Shown here one piece after another: positions 5,232 through 35,884 of a DNA stretch of 36,039 bases (positions are counted from its first letter, which is position 1; each line of letters opens with the position of its first letter). The translations under genes were made by a program, and so were the position numbers. Where the stretch lies: NCBI GenBank assembly GCA_043826745.1, contig JBDRPV010000126.1:1-36039 (forward strand), written 5' to 3'. Source of the DNA: Parcubacteria group bacterium (GTDB lineage: Bacteria > Patescibacteriota > JABMPQ01). The notes below the pieces were generated by a model. The model ran no database searches. It was not told the origin of the DNA and saw only the letters and a program-made list of their open reading frames with translations.

Positions 5232-6398
5232 TTATTGTCCGATTATTTTTTGGCCGAGATTAATAAAGATATCTCTAAATTTAAATACGTCCCGAAAAGT
5301 AATCGCTAACATTAAAAGTAACAACAGAACAAAACCAATCATATGGATGGTATTTTCTAGCCTGCGCCCCACCTTCTTGCCCCGAATTTTTTCTACCGCT
5401 AGAAATATCAAACGCCCTCCATCCAGGGCTGGGATAGGAAACAAATTGATTATTGCTAAATTCACACTCAGAATAGCAATAAATTGCAGAATATAAACGT
5501 AGCCCATCCGGGCCATTTGACCGGTCATGACAGCAATGCCAACTGGTCCACTTATTTCTTCCGTCACGCCAGCGCCAACCAGAAGATTTTTGATAATGTT
5601 AAATAAAGCCAACACAATAGCCACCAATAGAGCAAAAGTGCCAACTATCCCCTTTATTATCGCTTGGTGCCAAGGATATGAAACAATACCCGTCTCCACC
5701 AGGGAAACCCCAACTGGTCCGTCATTTTCGGGAAACGAGCTGCGGGGCGTCAGAGACAATTCCTGCTCCTGCTCTTCTCTCTTAATTCCCACGGTAATCT
5801 CTTGGTCTTGACTGGCTTTGGTCAATTCTTGTACTTGCTCAACATCATCTATTACTTGACCGGCTACCGACAAAACTTGGTCACCAACCTGGATACCAGC
5901 CAGCGCCGCCGGAGAACCATCACTGATGGCCATTACCTGAACCTTTCGCTCCCTCACTTGACTATCAGACACACTTTCATCGATAGCCACTGGCAAACCT
6001 ATTTTAAAACCAGCAATTAATAAAATCATTGCTAGTAAAATATTCATCGTTACACCAGCAATTAGAATTAGACTCCGTTGCCATATTTTCTTGTTGGCAA
6101 AACTATCCTCATCGTTTAAGGCATTATCGTCTTCGCCTTTGATTTTACAAAAACCGCCGATTGGCAACCAATTGAGAGAGTAAACTGTCGGCGCATTAGG
6201 ATCTGTCTCTTTATTACCGATAACTTTCTTCCACTTACCGTGACGGTCACGATAAATTCCCGCAATCCGGGGCGGGAAACCCATACCAAATTCTTCTACC
6301 TTAACACCCATCCTTCGAGCCATAACAAAATGACCTAACTCATGAACGAATATGAGAAGCCCGAGTATTAGAATGAATAGGATTATTGTGGTTAGCAT
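5232..6398 (-). CDS. rseP: Site-2 (M50) intramembrane zinc metalloprotease RseP with one PDZ domain
   Basis: 388 aa. HELGH zinc motif in TM1 (VHELGHFVMAR), a central PDZ-like segment (GSPAALAGIQVGDQVLSVAG) and a C-terminal NLFPIPALDGG motif. Confidence 0.9.
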   Translation of the reverse strand: MLTTIILFILILGLLIFVHELGHFVMARRMGVKVEEFGMGFPPRIAGIYRDRHGKWKKVIGNKETDPNAPTVYSLNWLPIGGFCKIKGEDDNALNDEDSFANKKIWQRSLILIAGVTMNILLAMILLIAGFKIGLPVAIDESVSDSQVRERKVQVMAISDGSPAALAGIQVGDQVLSVAGQVIDDVEQVQELTKASQDQEITVGIKREEQEQELSLTPRSSFPENDGPVGVSLVETGIVSYPWHQAIIKGIVGTFALLVAIVLALFNIIKNLLVGAGVTEEISGPVGIAVMTGQMARMGYVYILQFIAILSVNLAIINLFPIPALDGGRLIFLAVEKIRGKKVGRRLENTIHMIGFVLLLLLMLAITFRDVFKFRDIFINLGQKIIGQ

Positions 6399-6403
6399 AT
6401 AAA

Positions 6404-6467
6404 GGGTTACGGTTTGCGGGTTACAGGTTACTTATCAGCCTTTAGCTGGTAACTCGTAACCGGTAAC
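6404..6467. repeat. Simple-sequence intergenic hairpin: three GTTAC units facing three GTAAC units
   Basis: GTTAC occurs at 6406, 6420 and 6427. GTAAC occurs at 6449, 6456 and 6463. A small inner hairpin CAGC-CTTTA-GCTG sits between them. The element fills the frr stop to rseP start gap. Confidence 0.7.
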
Positions 6468-6477
6468 TAATCAACTC

Positions 6478-7035
6478 CTACACTGTCATCACTTCCTGCT
6501 CCTTTTTCTTTTCCGCGTCTCCAATCTTATCATTAATCTCGCCTACTGTTTTATCAAGTTCTTCTTGGGCTTTGTACTTGTCATCTTCGGTAACTTGACC
6601 GCTACTGGTCAGTTCCTTAATTTCTTTCCAGGTCTTTTCCCGAGCGTTCCGGACAATGATCTTAGCTTCTTCTGCTTTCTGACCAATGACCTTAGCTAGC
6701 TCCTGACGCCTCTCTTCGTTAAGCTCCGGAAATATCACTCGCACAACGTCTTTTTCTGCCATACAACTTAGACCTAAATCAGATTGAGTAATAGCACTCT
6801 CAACTGCTTTAAGTGAACCTTTGTCATAAGGCTGAACGGTCAACATCCTCACGTCAGTTACGTTGATGGTCGCTAATTGTTTTAAGGGCGTTTTGGCACC
6901 ATAGCAATCAACTACTAGATCTTCAATCAGAGCCGGAGAAGCCTTCCCGACCCGTAATTTGCCAAATTCCTTACTTAAATAATCCAGCGCTTTTTCCATC
7001 TCTTGCTTAGACTCAGTAATTTTTTGTTGATACAT
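6478..7035 (-). CDS. frr: Ribosome recycling factor
   Basis: 185 aa with the typical RRF sequence: LRVGKASPALIEDLVVDCYG..., IFPELNEERRQELAK, and a charged C-terminal helix. Confidence 0.95.
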   Translation of the reverse strand: MYQQKITESKQEMEKALDYLSKEFGKLRVGKASPALIEDLVVDCYGAKTPLKQLATINVTDVRMLTVQPYDKGSLKAVESAITQSDLGLSCMAEKDVVRVIFPELNEERRQELAKVIGQKAEEAKIIVRNAREKTWKEIKELTSSGQVTEDDKYKAQEELDKTVGEINDKIGDAEKKKEQEVMTV

Positions 7036-9119: not shown

Positions 9120-9884
9120 TTATTTTTTTGTTATGACCTCTAGAAGCTTTTTGTGCAGATGGGGATTGGCAGCTATCATGCCCCTGCTCTTGAGAGTCCA
9201 AGGCTGACCCGCCAGATCAGTAACCTGACAGCCCGCCTCTTTTAGGACAACTACTCGAGCAGCATCATCCCAGACTGAATCATGAAGTGATAAGAGCCAG
9301 TCACGTTTGCCACTAGCCACCTGTATGCCAGCAAAAGCCGCACAACCAAATGAATTCATCCAAAATGGTTCCTGAAAAACACTGTTTATCAATTTAGAAT
9401 ATATACTGGCCGTCTTTTCGTTGATAGTTGTAAAACCCAAACCATAACTATGTTCCCATTCCTTGGTTTCAGAACATTTTATTTTTTTATCATTCAAATA
9501 GGCACCCTGGCCTATTTCGGCAAAAACTAACTGATTGTGAGTAGGATCACATATTGCTCCCATCACCATCTCACCTTTCCACACCAATCCTACCATCACC
9601 CCAAAAAGTGGTGTCCCAATAGAATAATTCCGCGTACCATCCAAGGGATCGATTATCCAAACATATTCGGCGTCCGTTTTGCTCTCGCCCCTCTCCTCGG
9701 AAATAATTCCGTGATCAGGGTATTTGCTGATTATTTGCTCCACCAAATAATCATTAGCAGCCAAATCAGCTTCCGTCACAACATCAGCTGCGTCAAGCTT
9801 AGTATATTTAACACCCACTTTACCAAATTTTTCTAATATAATCTGACCGGCTTGGTGGGTAATTTGTTTGATGAATTTTTGCAT
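9120..9884 (-). CDS. Inositol monophosphatase family protein (SuhB/CysQ-like)
   Basis: 254 aa with IMPase family motifs: GIISEERGE, WIIDPLDGTRNY and WDDAA near the C-terminus. Confidence 0.85.
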   Translation of the reverse strand: MQKFIKQITHQAGQIILEKFGKVGVKYTKLDAADVVTEADLAANDYLVEQIISKYPDHGIISEERGESKTDAEYVWIIDPLDGTRNYSIGTPLFGVMVGLVWKGEMVMGAICDPTHNQLVFAEIGQGAYLNDKKIKCSETKEWEHSYGLGFTTINEKTASIYSKLINSVFQEPFWMNSFGCAAFAGIQVASGKRDWLLSLHDSVWDDAARVVVLKEAGCQVTDLAGQPWTLKSRGMIAANPHLHKKLLEVITKK

Positions 9885-26737: not shown

Positions 26738-27889
26738 TTAATTAACTTTTTTTATTATTCCCCCTCCTATTAATTCATCTCCCTGATAAAATACAATCGA
26801 TTGTCCCGGCATCACGGCTCGCTGAGGAATTTCCAACTGGGCGCGATAGATTTCTCCGTCCTGCTCAACGATCTTTGCCTCCACTGGTTTTGTATTATAC
26901 CGCACTACCGCTTCGGAGACTAGGGGCAGGGACGGTTCCCGGCCACTCACCCAACTGGCTTCAGAAAAACTTACCACAGCTGAATATAATCCCTTATCTT
27001 GTTTATCACTTGTCACAATCAAAGCATTGCTCGCAAAATCACGGTCGAGAACATAATATGGTCCGCTACCGCCAATCTTAATCCCCTTTCGCTGGCCAAT
27101 AGTATAGGCCTGTAAACCATGATGTTTTCCTAACTCCCGACCATCTTTATCAACAATAAGACCTTCCTTACCTGCACCCAAATTTCGAACTAAAAAATTA
27201 TCTACACTATCGTCAACAAAACACAGATCTTGGCTTTCCTTAGAAGCCGCAACTGGTAAATCCAGCTCGCGCGCTATTTTTCTAACCTCATCTTTTGTAT
27301 ATTTGCCAACAGGAAAAAGTAGGTGCTTGAGTTGATCTTGCTGGAGATTATACAAAAAGTATGATTGATCTTTATCTGCGTCTTTGGCTTTGAAGAGCTG
27401 GTGCTTGACTAACTCATTTTTGCCGAGTGAACTTTGTGAACTTTCTTCTGGGAAAGTTTGCAGCGAACGAGGTAATGATGAGTTAGTCAAAATAACATAG
27501 TGCCCCGTAGCTAGGTAATCAAATCCAAGCTCTCTCACTTTATCAAGCAGCAAACCAAATTTTATCTCTCGATTGCAAACCACACAAGGATTAGGTGTTA
27601 TATGATCCTTATATCCGACGATAAATTCATCCACTACTGCCTGTTTGAATTGATCCTTAAAATCCAACGTATAAAAGGGGATAGATAGCTGCTTAGCCAC
27701 TACTCTCACCTTTTGTTCTGATTCACTAGAACAACAACGGTTTTCACGCTGGCAAGCCCGCTCATCATGCCAAAAATACATAAAAAAGCCTGTCACTTCA
27801 TAGCCTGCTTTTTGTAAAAGAGCGGCCGCCACCGCCGAGTCTACTCCTCCCGACATAGCCACCGCTACTTTATTACTATCTTTAGTCAT
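26738..27889 (-). CDS. mnmA: tRNA 2-thiouridine(34) synthase MnmA
   Basis: 383 aa. Contains the PP-loop VAVAMSGGVDSAV and the catalytic-Cys region PNPCVVCNREIKFG, followed by KDQSYFLY and DLCFV. The start overlaps the upstream stop (TAATG). Confidence 0.92.
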   Translation of the reverse strand: MTKDSNKVAVAMSGGVDSAVAAALLQKAGYEVTGFFMYFWHDERACQRENRCCSSESEQKVRVVAKQLSIPFYTLDFKDQFKQAVVDEFIVGYKDHITPNPCVVCNREIKFGLLLDKVRELGFDYLATGHYVILTNSSLPRSLQTFPEESSQSSLGKNELVKHQLFKAKDADKDQSYFLYNLQQDQLKHLLFPVGKYTKDEVRKIARELDLPVAASKESQDLCFVDDSVDNFLVRNLGAGKEGLIVDKDGRELGKHHGLQAYTIGQRKGIKIGGSGPYYVLDRDFASNALIVTSDKQDKGLYSAVVSFSEASWVSGREPSLPLVSEAVVRYNTKPVEAKIVEQDGEIYRAQLEIPQRAVMPGQSIVFYQGDELIGGGIIKKVN

Positions 27890-29472
27890 TATCGACTATG
27901 ATTGTTAACTTTCACTACTTGCCCCGGTCTTACTCCTGAATTTCTACTTTTATTCTGCGGCGGTCTGGTAGTCTGTCTATCGTTTTTTCCCACGCTGGTT
28001 GTGCCTGCACCCTTCAATGCTACTGCAAAAGCTTTTTTGAAAGGTTGATGACTTTTATCCTCTTTCTTCGCTTGCGGTCGCGCCAATCGATCATTCCCCC
28101 GGTCAGAAGAACGACTACCGCCACCAGAAGGGCGACTACCACTTGGACTACCAGAAGACCGCGCCGAAGATTTCTCATCATCATCCATTACTCCACTCCA
28201 CCGCGCAATTTTGTCTTCAACTACGTCTCGCTTTTTAGCATAGCGCTCGCGTGAAATAGCAATAATTTTATCTCGGTTACCCTCAGTATCCCATAGCGGT
28301 GGTAACGTCGTGGCCGAGAAAGCCTGACTAGCCACTCCCTCTATCATCAACTTCAGATAGACATGAAATTTAGTTAGATTAACTAGGTCAGTTTCATCAA
28401 AAACTGGTTCAAACTCTTTGACTAGTACTTCGGCATCAGCTGCTCCAATTCGAAAACAGACGATCGTACCGACATTACCAAAAACAGCATAGCGAACTTC
28501 CTCGGCTAGCTGATCTATATACTGATGAGCCATTATCAAATCTAGATGATATTTACGCGCTTCAGACAAGATATCAGCAAAACTCTCGGTGGCAAAATTT
28601 TGAAACTCATCAACATAGAGATAAAAATCAGCTCGTTCTTCCTCGGGAATATCAACTCGACTCATCGCTGCCAGCTGAACCTTGGTAATTACCATCGCTC
28701 CAAAAAGAGCTGAAGCATCCTCACCTACTCTTCCTTTAGCTAAATTAAGCAATAATATTTTCCGGTTATCCATGATGTCACGCATATCCAGAGTTGACTT
28801 AGACTGCCCGACAATATTTCTAATCAAGGAAATTGATAAGAATTGACCAACTTTATTCTGAATCGGAGCGATCGCTTCTGTCATAAACTTATCTGGGTAC
28901 TTGGAAAATTCATCCACCCAAAAAGACTTTACAACTGGATCCTGCACTTTCTTGATCACTTTGTTGCGAAAAGCCTTGTCCGTCAGCATTTTCATAATAC
29001 CCAGCAAAGTACTGCCCGGATAATCCATCAAAGCAAGAATAGTATTGCGTAAAACGTATTCCAAGCGCGGCCCCCAAGAATCAGCCCATATTTTCTTAAA
29101 TACACCTAGTAGCCCAGAAGCCACCAGATGTTTATGATCAGGATCAACGTTCTCCATCACATTAAAAGCAATCGGATTATCAACATCGCCGGGATTAAAA
29201 TAGACAACGTCGTTGATCCGATCAGCCGGAACATAATCAAGCATTTTGTCAGCAAACTCGCCATGCGGATCAACCACACAGACGCCATTGCCGGCCTTAA
29301 TATCAGAAATCACCATATTCTCCATCATGGTCGTTTTGCCCATGCCAGTTTTTCCAACTACATACATGTGCCGCCGCCGATCGTCTACCTTAATACCAAA
29401 ACGACGTTTCTGACCCCGAAAGTTAGTTTCGCCAAATAGGGTAACGTCTGATTGTGGGTTTTGGTTTTCCAT
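27889..29472 (-). CDS. VirD4/TraD/TraG-like (type IV coupling protein-like) P-loop NTPase lacking an N-terminal membrane anchor
   Basis: 527 aa. Walker A is GKTGMGKT (residues 40-47) and Walker B is FYLYVDEF (residues 283-290). The ARKYHLDLIMAHQYIDQL...FGNVGTIVCF block resembles the C-terminal TraG/VirD4 module. No hydrophobic N-terminus is present. The last roughly 95 aa are Ser/Gly/Arg/Lys-rich and look disordered. Confidence 0.7.
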   Translation of the reverse strand: MENQNPQSDVTLFGETNFRGQKRRFGIKVDDRRRHMYVVGKTGMGKTTMMENMVISDIKAGNGVCVVDPHGEFADKMLDYVPADRINDVVYFNPGDVDNPIAFNVMENVDPDHKHLVASGLLGVFKKIWADSWGPRLEYVLRNTILALMDYPGSTLLGIMKMLTDKAFRNKVIKKVQDPVVKSFWVDEFSKYPDKFMTEAIAPIQNKVGQFLSISLIRNIVGQSKSTLDMRDIMDNRKILLLNLAKGRVGEDASALFGAMVITKVQLAAMSRVDIPEEERADFYLYVDEFQNFATESFADILSEARKYHLDLIMAHQYIDQLAEEVRYAVFGNVGTIVCFRIGAADAEVLVKEFEPVFDETDLVNLTKFHVYLKLMIEGVASQAFSATTLPPLWDTEGNRDKIIAISRERYAKKRDVVEDKIARWSGVMDDDEKSSARSSGSPSGSRPSGGGSRSSDRGNDRLARPQAKKEDKSHQPFKKAFAVALKGAGTTSVGKNDRQTTRPPQNKSRNSGVRPGQVVKVNNHSR

Positions 29473-29484
29473 CGATAATATAGA

Positions 29485-30759
29485 TTACTCCATCGGCAAA
29501 TCACCTGGCGGCATTCCCTTGCCAGACTCGGCCGTAACAACGGCTGGTGACTTAACTGTGATATAGGGAAAGTGAAACACCGTGGCCAGTTCTTCAACAC
29601 TCATGATAAATGGCTGCGCTCCGGCATCAACATCTCGCGATTGATAACGACGAATCAAATTGGTTTGACGAGGAGGAATGCGGGTTTTCTTCCAATAAGA
29701 AATAAAGGTCCAGTACTTTTTATGGGGCTTGAAAGAATTTAGGTTATTTGAATTAAAACCTTTAAAGGTTCCCATCATTGGGAAACCAATCCGTTTTTTG
29801 TTGAATACATCTTTGCGTCCTAAATACAGTGTCCGAACTTTTACTTGAAAACCGCCCTTACTAATGTTCTCCTGTATGGCTTTGACTGCATCTTGTTCTC
29901 CCGGTGATAAAAATAGCATTTCACTGGGTGGAGCGTCCTTAGTATTTGTTTTGCCTTGAGCTGCATCAGCTGGCTCAATCGCGCTAACTGCCGTCTGTAC
30001 TCCCTTCAAAAACAAAGGATTGTATGGCTTCCCCTTACGCTTAATAAGTTTATCAACAAGTTTATCACCATCTTTTTTCCACTTATCGCTGACTGGGCGG
30101 AGAATATACTGATACCAGATTTGTTCCCCATCCCCAATTCTACTCATCACCTCCAGGGCGTTAGAGAGAGGGTCAATAAACTTCTCTTCACTCATATCAT
30201 CCAAAAAATGCTTATAAGTCCGGATAGGATAAGCGTCTTCTCTCTCGAGTTTCCACTCCACCCCTACCATATCATACTGATCATTGGGAAATTTACTGGG
30301 AATAAACTGCGCGTAGTCATCGACTTCAATAATCTCCGCTTCTGGATACTGAGCATAGACGTTAGCTTCAACATGATCACGTAAGATAGTCGGCACGCGG
30401 ATAATAAAACGGATTTGCCCAGCCACACTGGCAATCTCTAGGCTAAATGTATTTTGGGATTCACCTTCAAAATATTTTTCTTTAAAATTAGGGGGCGAAT
30501 AAATAGTCCAAAGACCATTTAAAACCTCTTCCATTGACTTCGGGTTTTTCTCGTTGTCTTCGGGAACACTGATAGCTAACTGGATGTATTCGATGGAACG
30601 AACATACTTTATCCGCATGTAATTAAGCCAGACATAGTACAGTACGGCCAAAAACCCTGGAATAATTAACCACCATATTTTCCGCCCAACAGAAAAAAAC
30701 ATGTACCAAAATTCGTACAAATAACTAAAGAAATCAAGTGGTGGTAACTCCTCAAACAC
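29485..30759 (-). CDS. Membrane protein of unknown function, partner of the coupling-protein-like ATPase
   Basis: 424 aa. The track start is a GTG at 30759; an in-frame ATG lies at codon 20, so the true start is uncertain. A hydrophobic N-terminus (FFSYLYEFWYMFFSV, IWWLIIPGFLAVLYYVWLNY) is followed by MRIKYVR and a soluble domain of about 370 aa. It ends 12 nt before the ATPase gene. Confidence 0.55.
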   Translation of the reverse strand: MFEELPPLDFFSYLYEFWYMFFSVGRKIWWLIIPGFLAVLYYVWLNYMRIKYVRSIEYIQLAISVPEDNEKNPKSMEEVLNGLWTIYSPPNFKEKYFEGESQNTFSLEIASVAGQIRFIIRVPTILRDHVEANVYAQYPEAEIIEVDDYAQFIPSKFPNDQYDMVGVEWKLEREDAYPIRTYKHFLDDMSEEKFIDPLSNALEVMSRIGDGEQIWYQYILRPVSDKWKKDGDKLVDKLIKRKGKPYNPLFLKGVQTAVSAIEPADAAQGKTNTKDAPPSEMLFLSPGEQDAVKAIQENISKGGFQVKVRTLYLGRKDVFNKKRIGFPMMGTFKGFNSNNLNSFKPHKKYWTFISYWKKTRIPPRQTNLIRRYQSRDVDAGAQPFIMSVEELATVFHFPYITVKSPAVVTAESGKGMPPGDLPME

Positions 30760-30825
30760 AAGTCAAGATTAATGCCTTTATTTTTGTATTATATAACACC
30801 TCGTTAGTAGAGAGAAGAGATAAAT

Positions 30826-31908
30826 TTAGGCTAGGGTATAGGATTGTTTATCAACTCGCTGAAAACGTTTTGTGTTTTGCAAAGCCAAGGCAACCGTATT
30901 ACGTTTGACCATTCTTTGTTCTAAAACCTTAGAGATAATTTCATCTTTAGCCATGGGCTTGCCGGCTGCTTGCAAAACATGTTCGACCACATCAGCTACT
31001 GTCCCGGAGCTATATCCCCAGTCAGTCAGTCCATAAATACCCCGCCCAACTAAAACAAAACGCTTATCCTTGATCAACTCATTGTGCACAGTCTGGGAAA
31101 TTGCCTGTCGGCCCCCAAAGCTTATTTCATTGATCTTGTCCGTGATTTCTTTGAAGTGGAGAGGCTTACCGTTCTTTTTGAGTACTAGAAAAGCTTTATC
31201 TTTCACACCCTTAGGTACTATTTCATTCCAACTAGTAAATCCCCATTCAGCAAAAGGATTTTTTAATATTTTCTTGCCTAATTTCAAATAAGACTGGACA
31301 TGTTTAGCTTCAGAAACATCATGATTCTGAACTGTCTCGTGCTGTAAAATATGTTTTACAATTTCTGCTTCCGATAGAGGCTTGTTTTGCTTTTTTAATA
31401 CTTGGTGAGCAGCTTCGATAACTTTTCGCGGTATTTCAATGGAGCTGCCTTTTGTACCCCAGGCTTTATAAGTATGCTCTGTGTTATCATGACAATCAAA
31501 CTTATTACTGAGATTTAAAATAAAATCAACCACATTGCCATGTGTTTTAGCTGGTGATATTCTCTCTATAAAAGTATCTACCAGATGATTATGTTCCATA
31601 ACCTGGCCATGCTCAGCAATAACTGACTCCAATAGTGATTCACAAGGCTCAACTGCCTTTATCTTATTACCTTTTTGCAAATCTTTCAGAGCAGCTGACT
31701 CGATTTGTCGAACCCGCTCTCTAGTAATATCATGATTTTTACCGATTTCTTCCAACGTTTGGCGACGATCGCTATCCAGCCCAAAGCGCTTGACTAAAAT
31801 ATCTTTGGTTCTAGGCTTTAAGCTAGAGATTAGCTTGAACACAAAATCAGTGGGAAGCACTTGCACTCCCGCTTGACGGTTAGAGTTATTATTTATCTGA
31901 TTAGTCAT
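30826..31908 (-). CDS. DNA-binding protein: N-terminal sigma-70 region-4-like HTH followed by tandem HARE-HTH-like modules
   Basis: 360 aa. LKPRTKDILVKRFGLDSDRRQTLEEIGKNHDITRERVRQIESAALKDL closely resembles sigma-70 region 4, but regions 2 and 3 are absent. Later repeats look like HARE-HTH: KKQNKPLSEAEIVKHIL, LKKNGKPLHFKEITDKI...RFVLVGRGIYGLTDWG and QAAGKPMAKDEIISKVL...RFQRVDKQSYTL. Confidence 0.6.
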   Translation of the reverse strand: MTNQINNNSNRQAGVQVLPTDFVFKLISSLKPRTKDILVKRFGLDSDRRQTLEEIGKNHDITRERVRQIESAALKDLQKGNKIKAVEPCESLLESVIAEHGQVMEHNHLVDTFIERISPAKTHGNVVDFILNLSNKFDCHDNTEHTYKAWGTKGSSIEIPRKVIEAAHQVLKKQNKPLSEAEIVKHILQHETVQNHDVSEAKHVQSYLKLGKKILKNPFAEWGFTSWNEIVPKGVKDKAFLVLKKNGKPLHFKEITDKINEISFGGRQAISQTVHNELIKDKRFVLVGRGIYGLTDWGYSSGTVADVVEHVLQAAGKPMAKDEIISKVLEQRMVKRNTVALALQNTKRFQRVDKQSYTLA

Positions 31909-32249: not shown

Positions 32250-33632
32250 TTAATGGGCAGCTTCTGCTTGCAAAACAATCTTGACAGTACGCAATAAAAT
32301 CTGCAAATCCATTTTTAGCGCCCAATTTTCAATATAATAAGTGTCTAGCTTTACTTCTTCAGCAAAAGAGAGATCTGAGGCACCACTTACCTGTCCCATT
32401 CCAGTCATTCCCGGCTTGATGGCTAACACTTTTCGCTGATGCTTCTGATATTGCGCTACCTCTTCTGGTTCGTGGGGACGCGGACCAATCAAGCTCATGT
32501 CATCCTTAAGCACATTTAGCAACTGAGGTAGCTCATCGATCCTAGTTTTACGCAAGAATCTACCTACCCGAGTAATGCGCGGATCATTTTTCATTTTAAA
32601 TAACGGCCCCTGGCGTTCGCTAAACTTAAGCAGGTCTTTCTTCATTTTGTGGGCATCTTTAACCATCGAGCGGAATTTGAACATGTCAAATTCACCATCT
32701 CTACCTACTCGCTTTAATCTAACTAATACCGTTCCTGGCGTATTCAATTTAATAACAATGGCGACAGCTACAAATAAAGGCAATAAAAATATCAGCCCCA
32801 ATGTCGCGCCTGCCACATCAACAATTCGTTTAATGATCTTTCCCCAGCCATCGAGCGGGGTGCGTCGAAATTCCACCAGGGGAAAGCCAGCAACAGCCCT
32901 TACTTCAATATTAGTAGCCTCCGTGCCAAAAAGATCAGGAATGTATTTCATATCAATTTTGCGCTCGTCAGCAAAGTCAATTAGCTCCAGGACCTTTGTC
33001 TTGGGAATAGCGGGATCAGTTTGAATAATTTCATCCACTCCTTGATTTTGCGAAAATTGCTCTAATTTCTGTAACGTGTCGCCATTTACCTCATTTAGAG
33101 TGCCTACTACTTTATAGCCGGAAAGTGGATTTTGGAAACTATCTTTGATGTGTCTAGCAGCGGAAGTGTCACCAATCAACACGACTCGATGTACCCCGTA
33201 GTTATATTTATACAATCGGTGCTGTAGCCAACGAATTAGTGATCGACCCAGCACTATTAAAATTATTGCTAGTAACCAAGTCACTAATACTAAAAAACGA
33301 GAGGAAAAAAGTTCCGCTCGTAAGAATATATATAACACAATTCCCATTACTCCAGTGGATACTCCGACAAAAACGCTATATAGGTCATCAACTAATCGAC
33401 GCTTTTTCTTCGGGTTGTAAAGACCCAGCAGGGCGAAAATAAGCAGCCAAACGGGAGTGACTACTATTGCCAGCAAAAGATACTGCCGAAGAGGTAAATT
33501 AAACTGCACCGGCCATATCTCCACTACTCGGTCAGAAAAACGAATAAAGTAGGTGACAACTGCCGCCAAAATTATCATCAAGAAATCTACTGGAACCAAG
33601 GCAGCTGTAAAAGCTAATTCGGATTTTTTCAT
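32250..33632 (-). CDS. Polyprenyl-phosphate glycosyl-1-phosphate transferase (WbaP/bacterial sugar transferase family)
   Basis: 460 aa. Four or five N-terminal TM helices are followed by a central linker domain. The C-terminal catalytic domain carries KRIVDVAGATLGLIFLLPLF, MFKFRSM, GPLFKMKNDPRITRVGRFLRKTRIDELPQLLNVLKDDMSLIGPRP and YIENWALKMDLQILLRT. Confidence 0.9.
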   Translation of the reverse strand: MKKSELAFTAALVPVDFLMIILAAVVTYFIRFSDRVVEIWPVQFNLPLRQYLLLAIVVTPVWLLIFALLGLYNPKKKRRLVDDLYSVFVGVSTGVMGIVLYIFLRAELFSSRFLVLVTWLLAIILIVLGRSLIRWLQHRLYKYNYGVHRVVLIGDTSAARHIKDSFQNPLSGYKVVGTLNEVNGDTLQKLEQFSQNQGVDEIIQTDPAIPKTKVLELIDFADERKIDMKYIPDLFGTEATNIEVRAVAGFPLVEFRRTPLDGWGKIIKRIVDVAGATLGLIFLLPLFVAVAIVIKLNTPGTVLVRLKRVGRDGEFDMFKFRSMVKDAHKMKKDLLKFSERQGPLFKMKNDPRITRVGRFLRKTRIDELPQLLNVLKDDMSLIGPRPHEPEEVAQYQKHQRKVLAIKPGMTGMGQVSGASDLSFAEEVKLDTYYIENWALKMDLQILLRTVKIVLQAEAAH

Positions 33633-33671
33633 CGAGGGATATTATCTTGTGCTTGGATCTAAGTATATACC

Positions 33672-34306
33672 AAAAAGTCCAAGCAAACAATAAGCCGAGT
33701 TTTGTACCGATTTCATCCGAACGAAACGAGGTTTGAAATCGAGTATTCCGCTTCGGCGAGATCTCTCAGCCCCCAAAGGAAGACCAACTTCAAACCAACT
33801 TCGCTCGGATTAATCGTGATGATCATCTATCTAGTCCCGACATCGCTGTCGGGATCAAGCGACTAATAATTTGTCTTGCACCAGGCAGGGTTTACCAGGC
33901 ACTCATGTTACCATGAGGCCAAACGGGTAGCCTTCATGAAAAACATCCCGCTTCTTTTCACCTTTCACCAATGCTCCGCATTGGAAATTCCAACTATCAA
34001 ATCACAATCTCCAAGCAAATGACAAACTACAATTTACAATAATCAAACAGTTTGAAATTTGGTGCTTGTGACTTGGAATTTCCGGTGCGAAGCACCGGTT
34101 AGTATTGTCTCTGCGGCACTCCCGCCAAAGCGGGACCACGACTGCTGTCGAGGTTTCCCTAAAATTCAAGCTAATCACAAGTCCGCGGGACTCCTAATTA
34201 CCTTTCTTTTGGTTGCCGTTAGCAACTGCCATTTTTGATGGTGCTCGGACTTTCCTCCCACTGCGGCCTTGCGGCTACAGAAGGCGATCATCTCGTTTGC
34301 TTGGAC
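33672..34306 (-). ncRNA. rnpB: RNase P RNA (bacterial, type-A-like core) with large helical expansions, about 635 nt
   Basis: Conserved blocks on the minus strand: GGAGGAAAGTCCGAGCAC (34241-34258), AGTGCCGCAGAGACAATAC (34102-34120), GGTAAACCCTGCCTGGTGCAAGACAAAT (about 33871-33898) and ACAAAACTCGGCTTAT (33690-33705). P1 pairs TCCAAGCAAAC (34295-34305) with GTTTGCTTGGA (33678-33688). P2 pairs GAGATGATC with GATCATCAC. A promoter lies immediately upstream. Confidence 0.88.
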
Positions 34307-34312
34307 TGGGAC

Positions 34313-34341
34313 ATAGTAACAGGATTCATGGCAAAAGTCAA
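34313..34341 (-). promoter_or_regulatory. Candidate promoter of rnpB
   Basis: The minus strand reads TTGACT, a 17-nt spacer, then TACTAT. The predicted start is about 7 nt downstream, at the first nucleotides of helix P1. Confidence 0.6.
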
Positions 34342-34342
34342 C

Positions 34343-34376
34343 TCAAACAAAAATCCCAGCTTTCACAACTGGGATT
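34343..34376 (-). terminator. Intrinsic terminator after gatB
   Basis: The minus strand reads AATCCCAG-TTGTGAAAG-CTGGGATT followed by TTTGTTTG. It starts about 20 nt after the gatB stop. Confidence 0.75.
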
Positions 34377-34396
34377 GCGAAAAATCATAAATAATT

Positions 34397-35884
34397 TTAG
34401 CCAATCTTCCCCTTCAACGCCTCCCGCGCCACCTGCGGATCCGCTTTCCCCTTCGTGGCTGCCATCACTTGCCCAACCATAAACTGTAGGGCATTTCCCT
34501 TGCCCGCCTTATAGTCTCCCACTGGTCCCGGATTATCAGCTACCACCTTATCAATAATACCACTAAGCTCATCACTATCCCCTAGCTGCGCCAAATCAAG
34601 ATCCTCCACCACCTGCGAAGGATCTGAGCCTTTAGTAAACATCACTGCCAGCACCTTCTCGGCCGCTGAAGAATTTACCTTACCTTCGTGGATCATCGCC
34701 ATCAACTCCGCAAAGTTCTCAGCTGTAACTTTACAATCAGCCAAGCTAATTCCCTCTTTATTTAGTAATTTGAATAATGGCGAAGTAATCCAATTAAATG
34801 TTTGTTTAATAACTTTCTTAGCTTCCTCACTTAGAACTTCGTCTTTGCCCTCGAATGATTTAATCCACTCCTGAGCCTCCGAAATAACATTCTCAAAAAA
34901 CTCGCCCACCGCCCGGTCATCAACTAACATTTCTGCTTCTTCTGTCTTTAGCCCATATTGTTTTTCTAGTCGCTGGCGACGTTCTTCGGGTAATTCTGGT
35001 AAACTTGTTCGGATTTTATCTAACTGTTCTTTAGTAAAAGTCAACGGCGGCAAATCGGGATCGGGGAAATAGCGATAATCAGCCTCACCTTCCTTAGTCC
35101 GCTGCTCAACCGTTTCGCCCAGGTCATCATTCCAACCGCGGGTTGCCTGGTGTAATTCTTTGCCTGCATCTAGCACCTCCGTCTGCCGGCCAACTTCGTA
35201 AAGCAAGGCTTGCTCGACCGCCTTAAAAGAATTGAGATTTTTAATTTCAGTCTTGGGCAATAACTCCTTGTAGCCCTCCGGACGCAAGGAAATGTTAGCA
35301 TCACAACGTAGCTGCCCTTTTTCCATATCAGCGTTAGACACCCCAATATAAAGTAAAATCTTGCGTAACTTTTGTAAGAAAATACGCGCTTCCTGAGGAG
35401 TACGGATGTCGGGTTTGGTCACGATTTCCATTAGTGGCGTGCTGGCTCGATTATAGTCTACTAGGCTGTAATTGGCTCCATCCGGATGTAGCAACTTGCC
35501 GGCATCTTCTTCCAGGTGAATCCGCTCCAACCTTACCTTTTTAATCTCACCCTCATCTTTTATCTCTAAATATCCTTCACCACACAACGGCTTATCATAC
35601 TGGGAGATCTGGTAACCCTTCGGCAAGTCAGGATAAAAGTAATTTTTGCGGTCAAATTTAGACTCAGTCGGAATATCACAATGCAAAGCCTGACCAGACA
35701 TTATCGTCCACTCGACAGCCTGTTTGTTGATAGTTGGCAACACACCGGGATGACCCAGGCAAACCGAACAAACATTTTTGTTCGGCTCTGTCGGCTCTGC
35801 CTTATTGGGACAGCTACAGAACATCTTTGATTTTGTCTTGAGCTGGACATGTATTTCCAGCCCGATGATAGTTTCGTAAGGCAT
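34397..35884 (-). CDS. gatB: Asp-tRNA(Asn)/Glu-tRNA(Gln) amidotransferase subunit B
   Basis: 495 aa. The N-terminus is MPYETIIGLEIHVQLKTKSKMFCSC...CSVCLGHPGVLP. It also contains RIHLEEDAGK and RKNYFYPDLPKGYQISQ, plus a C-terminal YqeY-like tail. Confidence 0.95.
   Translation of the reverse strand: MPYETIIGLEIHVQLKTKSKMFCSCPNKAEPTEPNKNVCSVCLGHPGVLPTINKQAVEWTIMSGQALHCDIPTESKFDRKNYFYPDLPKGYQISQYDKPLCGEGYLEIKDEGEIKKVRLERIHLEEDAGKLLHPDGANYSLVDYNRASTPLMEIVTKPDIRTPQEARIFLQKLRKILLYIGVSNADMEKGQLRCDANISLRPEGYKELLPKTEIKNLNSFKAVEQALLYEVGRQTEVLDAGKELHQATRGWNDDLGETVEQRTKEGEADYRYFPDPDLPPLTFTKEQLDKIRTSLPELPEERRQRLEKQYGLKTEEAEMLVDDRAVGEFFENVISEAQEWIKSFEGKDEVLSEEAKKVIKQTFNWITSPLFKLLNKEGISLADCKVTAENFAELMAMIHEGKVNSSAAEKVLAVMFTKGSDPSQVVEDLDLAQLGDSDELSGIIDKVVADNPGPVGDYKAGKGNALQFMVGQVMAATKGKADPQVAREALKGKIG

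Follow-up and report, generated by a model that had tools for sequence, protein, structure and literature searches.

The catalytic RNA of bacterial RNase P has a P4-centred core that cleaves the 5' leaders of precursor tRNAs (pre-tRNAs), and its P12 and P19 helices project away from the substrate interface. Cyanobacterial versions, reportedly described by Vioque in 1997, are said to carry STRR tandem heptanucleotide repeats in P12. Here we describe the RNase P RNA gene (rnpB) of an uncultured, ultra-small Parcubacteria-group bacterium belonging to the Candidate Phyla Radiation (CPR/Patescibacteria), located on a metagenome-derived contig (JBDRPV010000126.1, assembly GCA_043826745.1) that was analysed over 36,039 nucleotides (nt), a stretch referred to below as the window. 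The gene encodes a class A RNA of 630 nt, some 1.6 times the usual size, with P12 and P19 rods of more than 100 nt each, and it represents an extreme form of what has previously been reported for the CPR.

RNase P RNAs of all domains are mostly 250-550 nt long (PMC2996960). Those of CPR bacteria have diverged, with large helix extensions or missing helices; many are without P16 and P17, two-thirds are without the UGG motif, and their alignments to the model have to be refolded by hand (Lui et al. 2021, PMC8172020). The CCA-binding motif is also often absent in cyanobacterial RNase P RNAs (PMC8172020). Expansions of bacterial RNase P RNAs accrete distal to the tRNA interface, and P19 in particular is variable in length and has been repeatedly lost (PMC12974513).

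Compared with class A (RF00010; E. coli M1 RNA and the T. maritima RNA), the window RNA shares the P1-P5 and P7-P11 core with its P4 strands, the helices P13, P14 and P18, and the J11/12 and J12/13 modules. It differs in its length (630 nt versus the typical ~330-420 nt), in the P12 and P19 rods, in a 50-nt P9 and in additional hairpins between P10 and P11, and it is without P16, P17, P6 and the GGU loop. With class B (B. subtilis type) it has in common the use of the P19 and P10.1 sites and the loss of P6, P16 and P17, and its relatives additionally use the P5.1 site. However, it keeps P13, P14 and an A-type P18, has neither P15.1 nor P5.1, and carries AGCA and UUUG loops at the P10.1 site in place of type-B tetraloops. 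The RNA is not a member of class B (RF00011), and the resemblance is positional and convergent.

The CPR RNAs of Lui et al. (PMC8172020) come from the same radiation and show the same helix extensions, missing P16/P17 and missing UGG, and the manual refolding described there was likewise required for P9 of the window and for the 3' end of the gene in one relative (L207, see below). That study illustrates extended P15 and P12 or P15 losses and gives no lengths; it contains no giant P12 and P19 rods, no P10.1-site hairpins and no turnover of whole helices among near relatives. The present locus therefore goes beyond it in the 630-nt size, the rods of more than 100 nt, the use of type-B sites on a type-A scaffold and the helix turnover among congeners, and the architecture of the clade could arguably be called a structural variant. 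Nothing specific on a 'largest bacterial RNase P RNA' emerged from the literature searched. As in the cyanobacterial STRR RNAs, whose enzyme is functional in its hosts, P12 has been lengthened by lineage-specific sequence; in contrast to them it contains no tandem repeat, no array being reported by Tandem Repeats Finder in 33600-34400 at a score of >=30, and it is not an expansion of the STRR type. Growth at helix tips, especially that of P12, distal to the substrate interface is also seen in archaeal and eukaryotic RNase P RNAs and in rRNA expansion segments (PMC12974513). The archaeal and eukaryotic P12 extensions bind dedicated proteins and are fixed in large clades, whereas no such partner is indicated for the window and the rods of its clade vary among congeners.

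The rnpB gene of the window

When the whole window was compared with Rfam using cmscan, the single above-threshold match was to RNaseP_bact_a (RF00010). It lies on the minus strand at 33676-34303 and scores 146.1 bits versus a gathering score of 100 (E=3e-45). The match spans model positions 1-367 without truncation, and the class A model outcompetes the other members of its clan. P1 can be extended by three base pairs (GUC/GAC) beyond this span (G34306-U-C-C with G-G-A-C33677), giving an RNA of 630 nt from P1 to P1, which is followed by a run of five U residues ending at 33672. Both strands of the P4 pseudoknot, i.e. conserved region (CR) I (GAGGAAAGUCC) and CR-V (ACAxAAxxCGGCUUA), were recovered with high posterior probability, and the type-A peripheral set of P13, P14 and P18 with GNRA-type docking loops is present. 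The P15-P16-P17 arm is reduced to 2 nt where the model has 39; P16, P17 and hence P6 are absent, and the loop of the vestigial P15 (AAAUUAUUA) contains no GGU CCA-binding motif. This reduction is the same in all relatives from the clade, and it does not exclude membership in class A because the arm is dispensable in the family and often missing in the CPR.

Upstream of P1 lies a promoter of the sigma-70 type whose -10 box ends 7 nt ahead of the first P1 base. By itself the consensus scan is not significant (2 sites versus 1.1 expected), but TTGAC and TGTTA do not vary among the four relatives with alignable upstream sequence (a five-member alignment including the window). The predicted start of transcription coincides with the first base of P1 (34306) or lies close to it. 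Directly downstream is a sugar-transferase gene (32250-33632), and rnpB is found directly upstream of the same gene in 10 relatives. The locus is thus a bacterial class A RNase P RNA gene in a conserved position with a conserved promoter; it is probably expressed and its RNA is probably active on pre-tRNA.

A first-pass annotation of the window had placed an RNase P RNA of about 635 nt at 33672-34306, and this span is correct, comprising the 630 nt from P1 to P1 and the U run. The type-A core that it recognized is borne out by the clan competition and by P13, P14 (GUAA) and P18 (GCGA), and both the strand reading and the model alignment recover all of its core blocks in colinear order. The promoter that it had noted at the 5' end of P1 was located there too, with the conservation given above. 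Its view that the gene is not a disrupted one agrees with the intact core, with the promoter and genomic position kept in relatives, and with helices that are strand-specific and contain G-U pairs. A placement of the RNA ends by the covariance model that would have made the length normal did not arise, since class A was matched over its full length with 630 nt versus the 367 nt of the model.

Relative to this 367-nt consensus the net excess is +261 nt, composed approximately of P3 (+4), P9 (+37), the P10.1-site hairpins (+34), P12 (+110), P13 (+16), the P15-P17 region (-37) and P19 (+96). P12 and P19 contribute ~205 nt, in line with the first-pass annotation, which had attributed much of the excess to two insertions; it had overlooked the expansion of P9, the P10.1-site hairpins, the growth of P13 and the loss of P16 and P17.

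Structure and conservation of the enlarged helices

The P12 segment (34099-33967) folds into a single imperfect rod with an A/U-rich distal part and six G-U pairs (minimum free energy (MFE) -53.2 kcal/mol, z=-7.1; 0/200 dinucleotide shuffles as good). Its pairing proceeds through CCGGUGC/GCAUUGG, UUCGCA/UGCGGA and a CC/AA internal loop to GGAAAUUCCAAG/CUUGGAAUUUCC, and the continuous rod is both the minimum-energy and the centroid structure. In the earlier description this region consisted of a 101-nt hairpin (33983-34083) flanked by two short GC hairpins. The sequences in question exist, but as the strands of the 5' GC hairpin are also complementary to those of the 3' GC hairpin, one continuous helix is possible, and the fold with three separate hairpins is 10.5 kcal/mol less stable (-42.7 versus -53.2 kcal/mol), besides being incompatible with the pairs that close the long hairpin at its end. 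The continuous rod also keeps the canonical topology, with one P12 helix between J11/12 and J12/13.

The P19 rod (33816-33708; MFE -51.4 kcal/mol, z=-5.3; 0/200 dinucleotide shuffles as good) corresponds to the helix of about 107 nt at 33709-33815 that had been assigned to the P19 site. Both rods contain ~25-30 bp of quasi-continuous duplex with 5-6 G-U pairs. For P12 the sense strand folds at -53.2 versus -44.1 kcal/mol for the antisense strand, and for P12, P19 and P9 (2-6 G-U pairs each) the sense strand is more stable by 9-13 kcal/mol, as would be expected for selected RNA helices and not for young DNA palindromes. An origin of P12 as a duplicate of P19 was considered and rejected, the local alignment of the two being not significant in either orientation (p about 0.1). 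The 3' arm of P12 contains a 10-nt segment, UUUGCUUGGA (window 34010-34022), that is identical to the 3' strand of P1 and lies in a region 92% complementary over 13 nt to the 5' strand of P1, with ~0.1 such matches expected by chance; it may be coincidental, may act as a trap for misfolding or may hint at the origin of the insert.

Comparative evidence for pairing comes from helices other than P12. In an alignment of 10 sequences covering P9 and the two extra hairpins, pairing holds in 93.3% of cells and drops to 31-52% once the 3' partners are shifted by 1-3 columns; eight pairs are changed on both sides, and 0/500 column shuffles reach the observed values. For P9, helices 1-2 of alignment A3 (10 sequences) are 91-100% paired and include double compensatory changes, e.g. 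at columns 14/60 (GC in five sequences, AU in four) and 25/49 (AU in four, GC in four). In the second extra hairpin (CCCGC/GCGGG) four of the six pairs covary. The lower 29 bp of the P19 rod can be aligned among the window, L211 and L205, where 97.6% of cells are paired and three double compensatory changes (C-G to U-A, A-U to C-G and G-C to A-U) are seen as against none in the slid controls, the shuffle control being weak with three sequences (24/500). These alignments indicate that P9, the P10.1-site hairpins and the base of P19 are maintained by compensatory change. The search for covariation in the inserted helices, which the first-pass annotation had proposed, is accordingly positive for the base of P19; the P12 rod is represented by a single sequence, too few for covariation.

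A long P9 is common to the whole clade. The P9 closure proposed by the covariance model (CAAA...UUUG) was rejected, as relatives lacking the 34-nt insert at the P10.1 site show the true P9 3' strand together with the canonical GGGAAAGUGCC; because these relatives read the canonical sequence, it is the Rfam alignment that misplaced the 3' strand of P9 in the window. At P10/P11 the relatives without the extra hairpins read the canonical UAGGGAAAGUGCC.

Table 1. Elements of the window rnpB, combining the model alignment, the full-length minimum-energy fold and comparative data
Element	Coordinates	Strand	Description
rnpB, class A RNase P RNA	33677..34306	minus	cmscan match plus P1 extension; full-length MFE structure forms P1, P12 and P19
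rnpB promoter	34313..34341	minus	TTGACT, 17-nt spacer, TG-extended TACTAT; consensus scan 9/12 with TG
P4 5' strand / CR-I	34258-34243	minus	GGAGGAAAGUCCGAGC; aligned to invariant consensus GAGGAAAGUCCGG with high posterior probability
P5 and P7		minus	GCACCA/UGGUGC and GGCAG/CUGCC; plain J5/7
P8		minus	
P9, extended	34161..34210	minus	50 nt; 4-bp base helix (AAAA/UUUU), internal loop, ~15-bp hairpin
Two extra hairpins	34120..34153	minus	34 nt; between P10 5' strand (GGGAAA) and P11 5' strand (GUGCC), the type-B P10.1 position; CCUCGAC-AGCA-GUCGUGG and UCCCGC-UUUG-GCGGGA
P12, giant	33967..34099	minus	133 nt; normal P12 site between J11/12 and J12/13
P13	33921..33953	minus	33 nt, ~16 nt above model consensus; loop region 21 nt versus 5; helix kept across clade
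P14	33898..33920	minus	GUAA tetraloop (type-A hallmark); cmscan alignment; sequence kept in relatives
P15, vestigial	33861..33875	minus	15-nt, 3-bp hairpin GAC-AAAUUAUUA-GUC; cmscan alignment
P18	33835..33854	minus	GCGA (GNRA) loop; cmscan alignment
P2 3' strand	33824-33818	minus	GAUCAUC
P19, giant	33708..33816	minus	109 nt; between P2 3' and P4 3' strands
P4 3' strand / CR-V	33705-33690	minus	ACAAAACUCGGCUUAU; aligned to consensus ACAGAACCCGGCUUA

Relatives and turnover of peripheral helices

The GatB protein and the transferase encoded on either side of rnpB are 94% and 97% identical, respectively, to proteins of metagenome-assembled genomes (MAGs) labelled 'Parcubacteria group bacterium'. 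The comparison is one of congeners and not of a single strain, the nearest relative having ~87% gatB DNA identity. In the relatives (Table 2) rnpB measures 391 to ~524 nt and its core is 97-100% identical to that of the window. The giant P12 is found only in the window: P12 is 15-40 nt long in all 10 relatives, including the closest, and is a 15-20-nt hairpin in most of them and ~40 nt in L202 and L205. The whole P12 of the window differs from that of the relatives from the first base pair onward, and no ancestral stem flanks the insert. P19, by comparison, was found in every relative examined and ranges from 16 to ~143 nt. The long rods of L211 and L205 are homologous to that of the window, while the sequence of the L207 rod is unrelated to it. 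In L207, P19 occupies 6650-6792, so that the Rfam match (6310-6696) ends inside it, and the true P4 3' strand lies at 6794-6808.

Table 2. The rnpB genes that immediately precede the shared sugar-transferase gene
Locus	Transferase identity	rnpB length	P19	P10.1-site hairpins	J5/7 (P5.1 site)
Window		630 nt	109 nt	present	only UCAAAAAU (34236-34229)
L201	97%	434 nt	16-19-nt GC hairpin	present	only UCAAAAAU
L211	91%	5'-truncated; ~524 nt by P4-to-P4 distance	109 nt	present	only UCAAAAAU
L204	82%	427 nt	16-19-nt GC hairpin	present	GC hairpin
L212	81%	423 nt	16-19-nt GC hairpin	present	GC hairpin
L202	80%	429 nt	~30 nt	absent	GC hairpin (9560-9600)
L205	74%	515 nt	~96 nt	absent	GC hairpin (45 nt)
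L207	70%	~513 nt; model match ends ~125 nt early	~143 nt	absent	GC hairpin
L208	70%	405 nt	~30 nt	absent	GC hairpin
L209 / L210	68%	391 nt	~30 nt (L209)	absent (L209)	GC hairpin (L209)

Segment by segment, the window is identical to L201 at 48/48 positions in P4-P8, at 56/57 in P9 and at 83/86 in P13-P14, but at only 10/20 in P18. The differences in P18 keep the pairing, and this helix matches that of the more distant L205 at 18/20 positions. These identities suggest that individual helices have partly independent histories. A more distant patescibacterial gene (L009) has a length of 522 nt, and its expansions likewise lie in P9, P12 and P19.

The distance between the two P4 strands is 553 nt in the window, as compared to 238-441 nt in 94 other class A genes from metagenomes, a sample defined by a P4/P5 pattern that consists mostly of unrelated class A RNAs and contains no close relatives. 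Two further candidates for giant RNAs, L114 (1-400) and L174 (1-370), were rejected, as in both the P4 5' motif and the beginning of an RNase P RNA are followed by unrelated high-GC sequence; these contigs are probably chimeric or truncated. A scan of IMG/VR for the J11/12 motif of the clade gave one match, a chance occurrence inside a phage coding sequence.

The same comparisons bear on whether the enlarged helices are separate elements. Neither cmscan of the window at the gathering threshold nor that of 33600-34400 at E<=10 detected an intron family, the additional matches in the latter region being only weak microRNA-precursor look-alikes that reflect the hairpins. BLAST searches with P12 against the window and all fetched loci (219 loci, ~2.5 Mb) revealed no other copy, an exact 20-mer scan of IMG/VR with P12 gave no match, and searches with the P19 and P9 segments against the window and fetched loci recovered only homologous rnpB positions. 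Over the 36 kb of host genome covered there is no sign of a self-splicing intron or of a miniature inverted-repeat transposable element (MITE) or other repeated palindrome at these helices. The first-pass annotation had allowed that the inserts might be a separate element absent from close relatives and removed from the mature RNA. For P12 the absence from close relatives is indeed observed, but a distinct, excised element is unsupported, with no intron, MITE or repeat signature.

Interpretation and competing explanations

We favour the view, to which we assign a probability of roughly 0.8, that the gene encodes a working class A ribozyme in which the exposed helices have become expansion segments that evolve fast, are tolerated and are probably kept in the mature RNA. 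In this scenario the standard P4-centred core would remove 5' leaders from pre-tRNAs, and the expansion segments, at helix tips and junctions, would be directed away from both the active site and the surface that binds tRNA. P9 is long throughout the clade, the P10.1-site hairpins were gained in a sub-clade, the P19 rod is present in some lineages and the growth of the P12 rod is confined to the branch of the window, while P16, P17, P6 and the CCA-binding GGU loop have been lost clade-wide. The rods themselves are most likely retained in the mature RNA and may be near-neutral or weakly stabilising. As P12 and P19 are tiny in relatives whose core is 97-100% identical, the long rods are not needed for catalysis, and the giant P12 in particular appears to be lineage-specific and dispensable.

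Several points weigh against this interpretation. The giant P12 is a singleton sequence for which thermodynamics and position are the only support, and given its absence from the nearest relative it may be a very recent insertion. The copy of UUUGCUUGGA in its 3' arm could compete with P1, and the duplexes of P12 and P19 could be cut by a double-strand-specific RNase. A second, canonical rnpB may also be present elsewhere in the genome, beyond the 36-kb window.

The near-continuous duplex of ~25-30 bp in P12 and P19 is what might be expected if the rods were intervening sequences (IVSs) removed by RNase III-type excision, leaving the RNase P RNA in pieces that tertiary structure would keep together, comparable to 23S rRNAs with IVSs. 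Their location at helix tips, where a break spares the core, and their variable presence among close relatives, as for IVSs, would fit such a view, as would the many insertions known in CPR rRNAs. The compensatory changes of the lower P19 in three lineages speak against it, but these are also expected of an RNase III site and are not decisive; furthermore, no earlier example of a bacterial RNase P RNA in fragments turned up in the literature searched, and we regard excision as distinctly unlikely. An A/U-rich imperfect palindrome that is absent from all 10 relatives could alternatively be a recent mobile or foldback, MITE-like insertion in the loop of P12, neutral or mildly harmful, the more so as an insertion resembling an insertion sequence (IS) lies ~35 nt upstream of rnpB in a close relative and indicates that mobile DNA is active at the locus. 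Yet no second copy exists in the 36-kb window, in the ~2.5 Mb of related loci or in IMG/VR, P12 is without a target-site duplication and without tandem repeats, and the ancestral CCCCGC/GCGGGG stem of P12 has not been retained. The arms of the rod, interrupted by bulges, are only 76% complementary at the DNA level, unlike those of a young palindrome, and its six G-U pairs and the 9 kcal/mol advantage of the RNA strand also argue against this origin, which is very unlikely. That the P12 segment is an assembly artefact, through a chimeric join or an amplification foldback, is extremely improbable: the sequence does come from a single metagenome-derived contig and no independent assembly has a giant P12, but the insert is exactly in the P12 register at both ends, forms a hairpin that bulges and G-U pairs make imperfect in place of a perfect inverted duplication, and has flanks colinear with the relatives on both sides.

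A different view would grant the expansions a function, either in compensating for the lost P6/P16/P17 bridge or in docking lineage-specific proteins as the archaeal and eukaryotic P12 extensions do. In Bacilli, losses of P6, P16 and P17 coincide with gains of P5.1-, P10.1- and P19-type helices (PMC12974513), and the present clade, having lost P16 and P17, uses the same sites, with P19 in all members examined, P10.1-like hairpins in five and P5.1-like hairpins in seven relatives; P9 and the P10.1-like hairpins are moreover conserved with covariation. However, conservation is lowest in the largest rods, with a P12 of 15-133 nt and a P19 of 16 to ~143 nt on near-identical cores, and their distal sequences bear no relation to each other from one lineage to the next, which argues against a specific partner for the long distal portions. 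We consider a function for the expansions as a whole unlikely, although it could still hold for the short conserved elements. Finally, as P12 is enlarged on one branch, the P19 rods are patchy and P18 is nearer to that of a distant relative, the peripheral helices might be cassettes exchanged among congeners, with active creation and shuffling, and the rods perhaps removed to yield a fragmented RNA. This proposal we find doubtful; if true, it would imply helix-scale recombination of rnpB alleles or hairpin-generating insertion on short timescales.

On the reading of the rods as tolerated expansion segments, the clade offers a natural series in which near-identical cores are combined with P12 of 15-133 nt and P19 of 16-143 nt, and which tests the tolerance for peripheral RNA. 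It might show at short evolutionary distance the origin of expansion segments that the accretion model of RNase P and the ribosome assumes and that is rarely seen, and it adds to the paradox of enlarged structural RNAs in very small genomes. There is also a practical consequence: annotation pipelines may misalign or mis-bound such genes, as with the misplaced P9 3' strand of the window and the end of the L207 gene called ~125 nt early, and completeness checks of CPR genomes depend on the detection of rnpB.

The only tRNA gene near rnpB in any relative is that for tRNA-Lys (UUU) in L202 (4926-5000), which ends in ...CGCCCCA-TGC, i.e. the discriminator A is followed by TGC and the 3' CCA is not encoded. 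The loss of the GGU loop weakly fits tRNA genes that do not encode CCA (n=1).

Genomic neighbourhood

The best 80 GatB loci all come from Patescibacteria-type MAGs, and among these only L009 has rnpB within 10 kb of gatB; two further gatB homologues have no rnpB nearby. Beyond the immediate clade, then, gatB and rnpB are not linked in a conserved manner. The spacer between the two genes is interrupted in the closest relative (L001 8067-8189 and L201 1-140, equivalent to window 34342) at a point that in the window lies between the gatB terminator and the -35 box of rnpB. The junctions read TTTGTTTGAG|GGCTCTTCATCAAATCGGGTG in L001 and CACCCAAATTGGTGAAGAGCC|TGTTTGAGTTGACT in L201, with imperfect terminal inverted repeats of ~21 bp (18/21) and a flanking 8-bp direct repeat, TGTTTGAG. 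Assuming that L001 and L201 belong to the same genome, this looks like an IS-type insertion just upstream of the L201 rnpB promoter, which would explain why both contigs end there.

On the other side of the gene, the block TTTTTGGTATATA (window 33664-33676), right after the 3' strand of P1, is invariant in all aligned relatives. It can be interpreted as a TG-extended -10 box (TGGTATATA) that precedes the transferase ATG (33632) by ~32 nt, and the transferase promoter appears to abut or overlap the 3' end of rnpB. On the RNA strand a little beyond rnpB, UCCAAGCACAAGAUAAUAUC (window 33642-33657) is a 75% copy of the 5' end of rnpB (P1/P2 5' strand, 34286-34305) and can pair with the 3' strand of P1 (33678-33693; 16 nt, 81%), so that read-through transcripts could form this hairpin in place of P1. 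This pairing could be a processing or termination structure, or due to chance.

Downstream of the transferase gene, window 27889-31908 encodes a Sigma70_r4/HARE-HTH protein, a DUF8128 protein, a DUF87/TrwB-type ATPase, MnmA and the alanyl-tRNA synthetase AlaRS. The order of these genes is kept in L201, L202 and L204, and L207-L209 carry glycosyltransferase genes instead. The pairing of the DUF8128 protein with a coupling-protein-like ATPase may represent a functional module.

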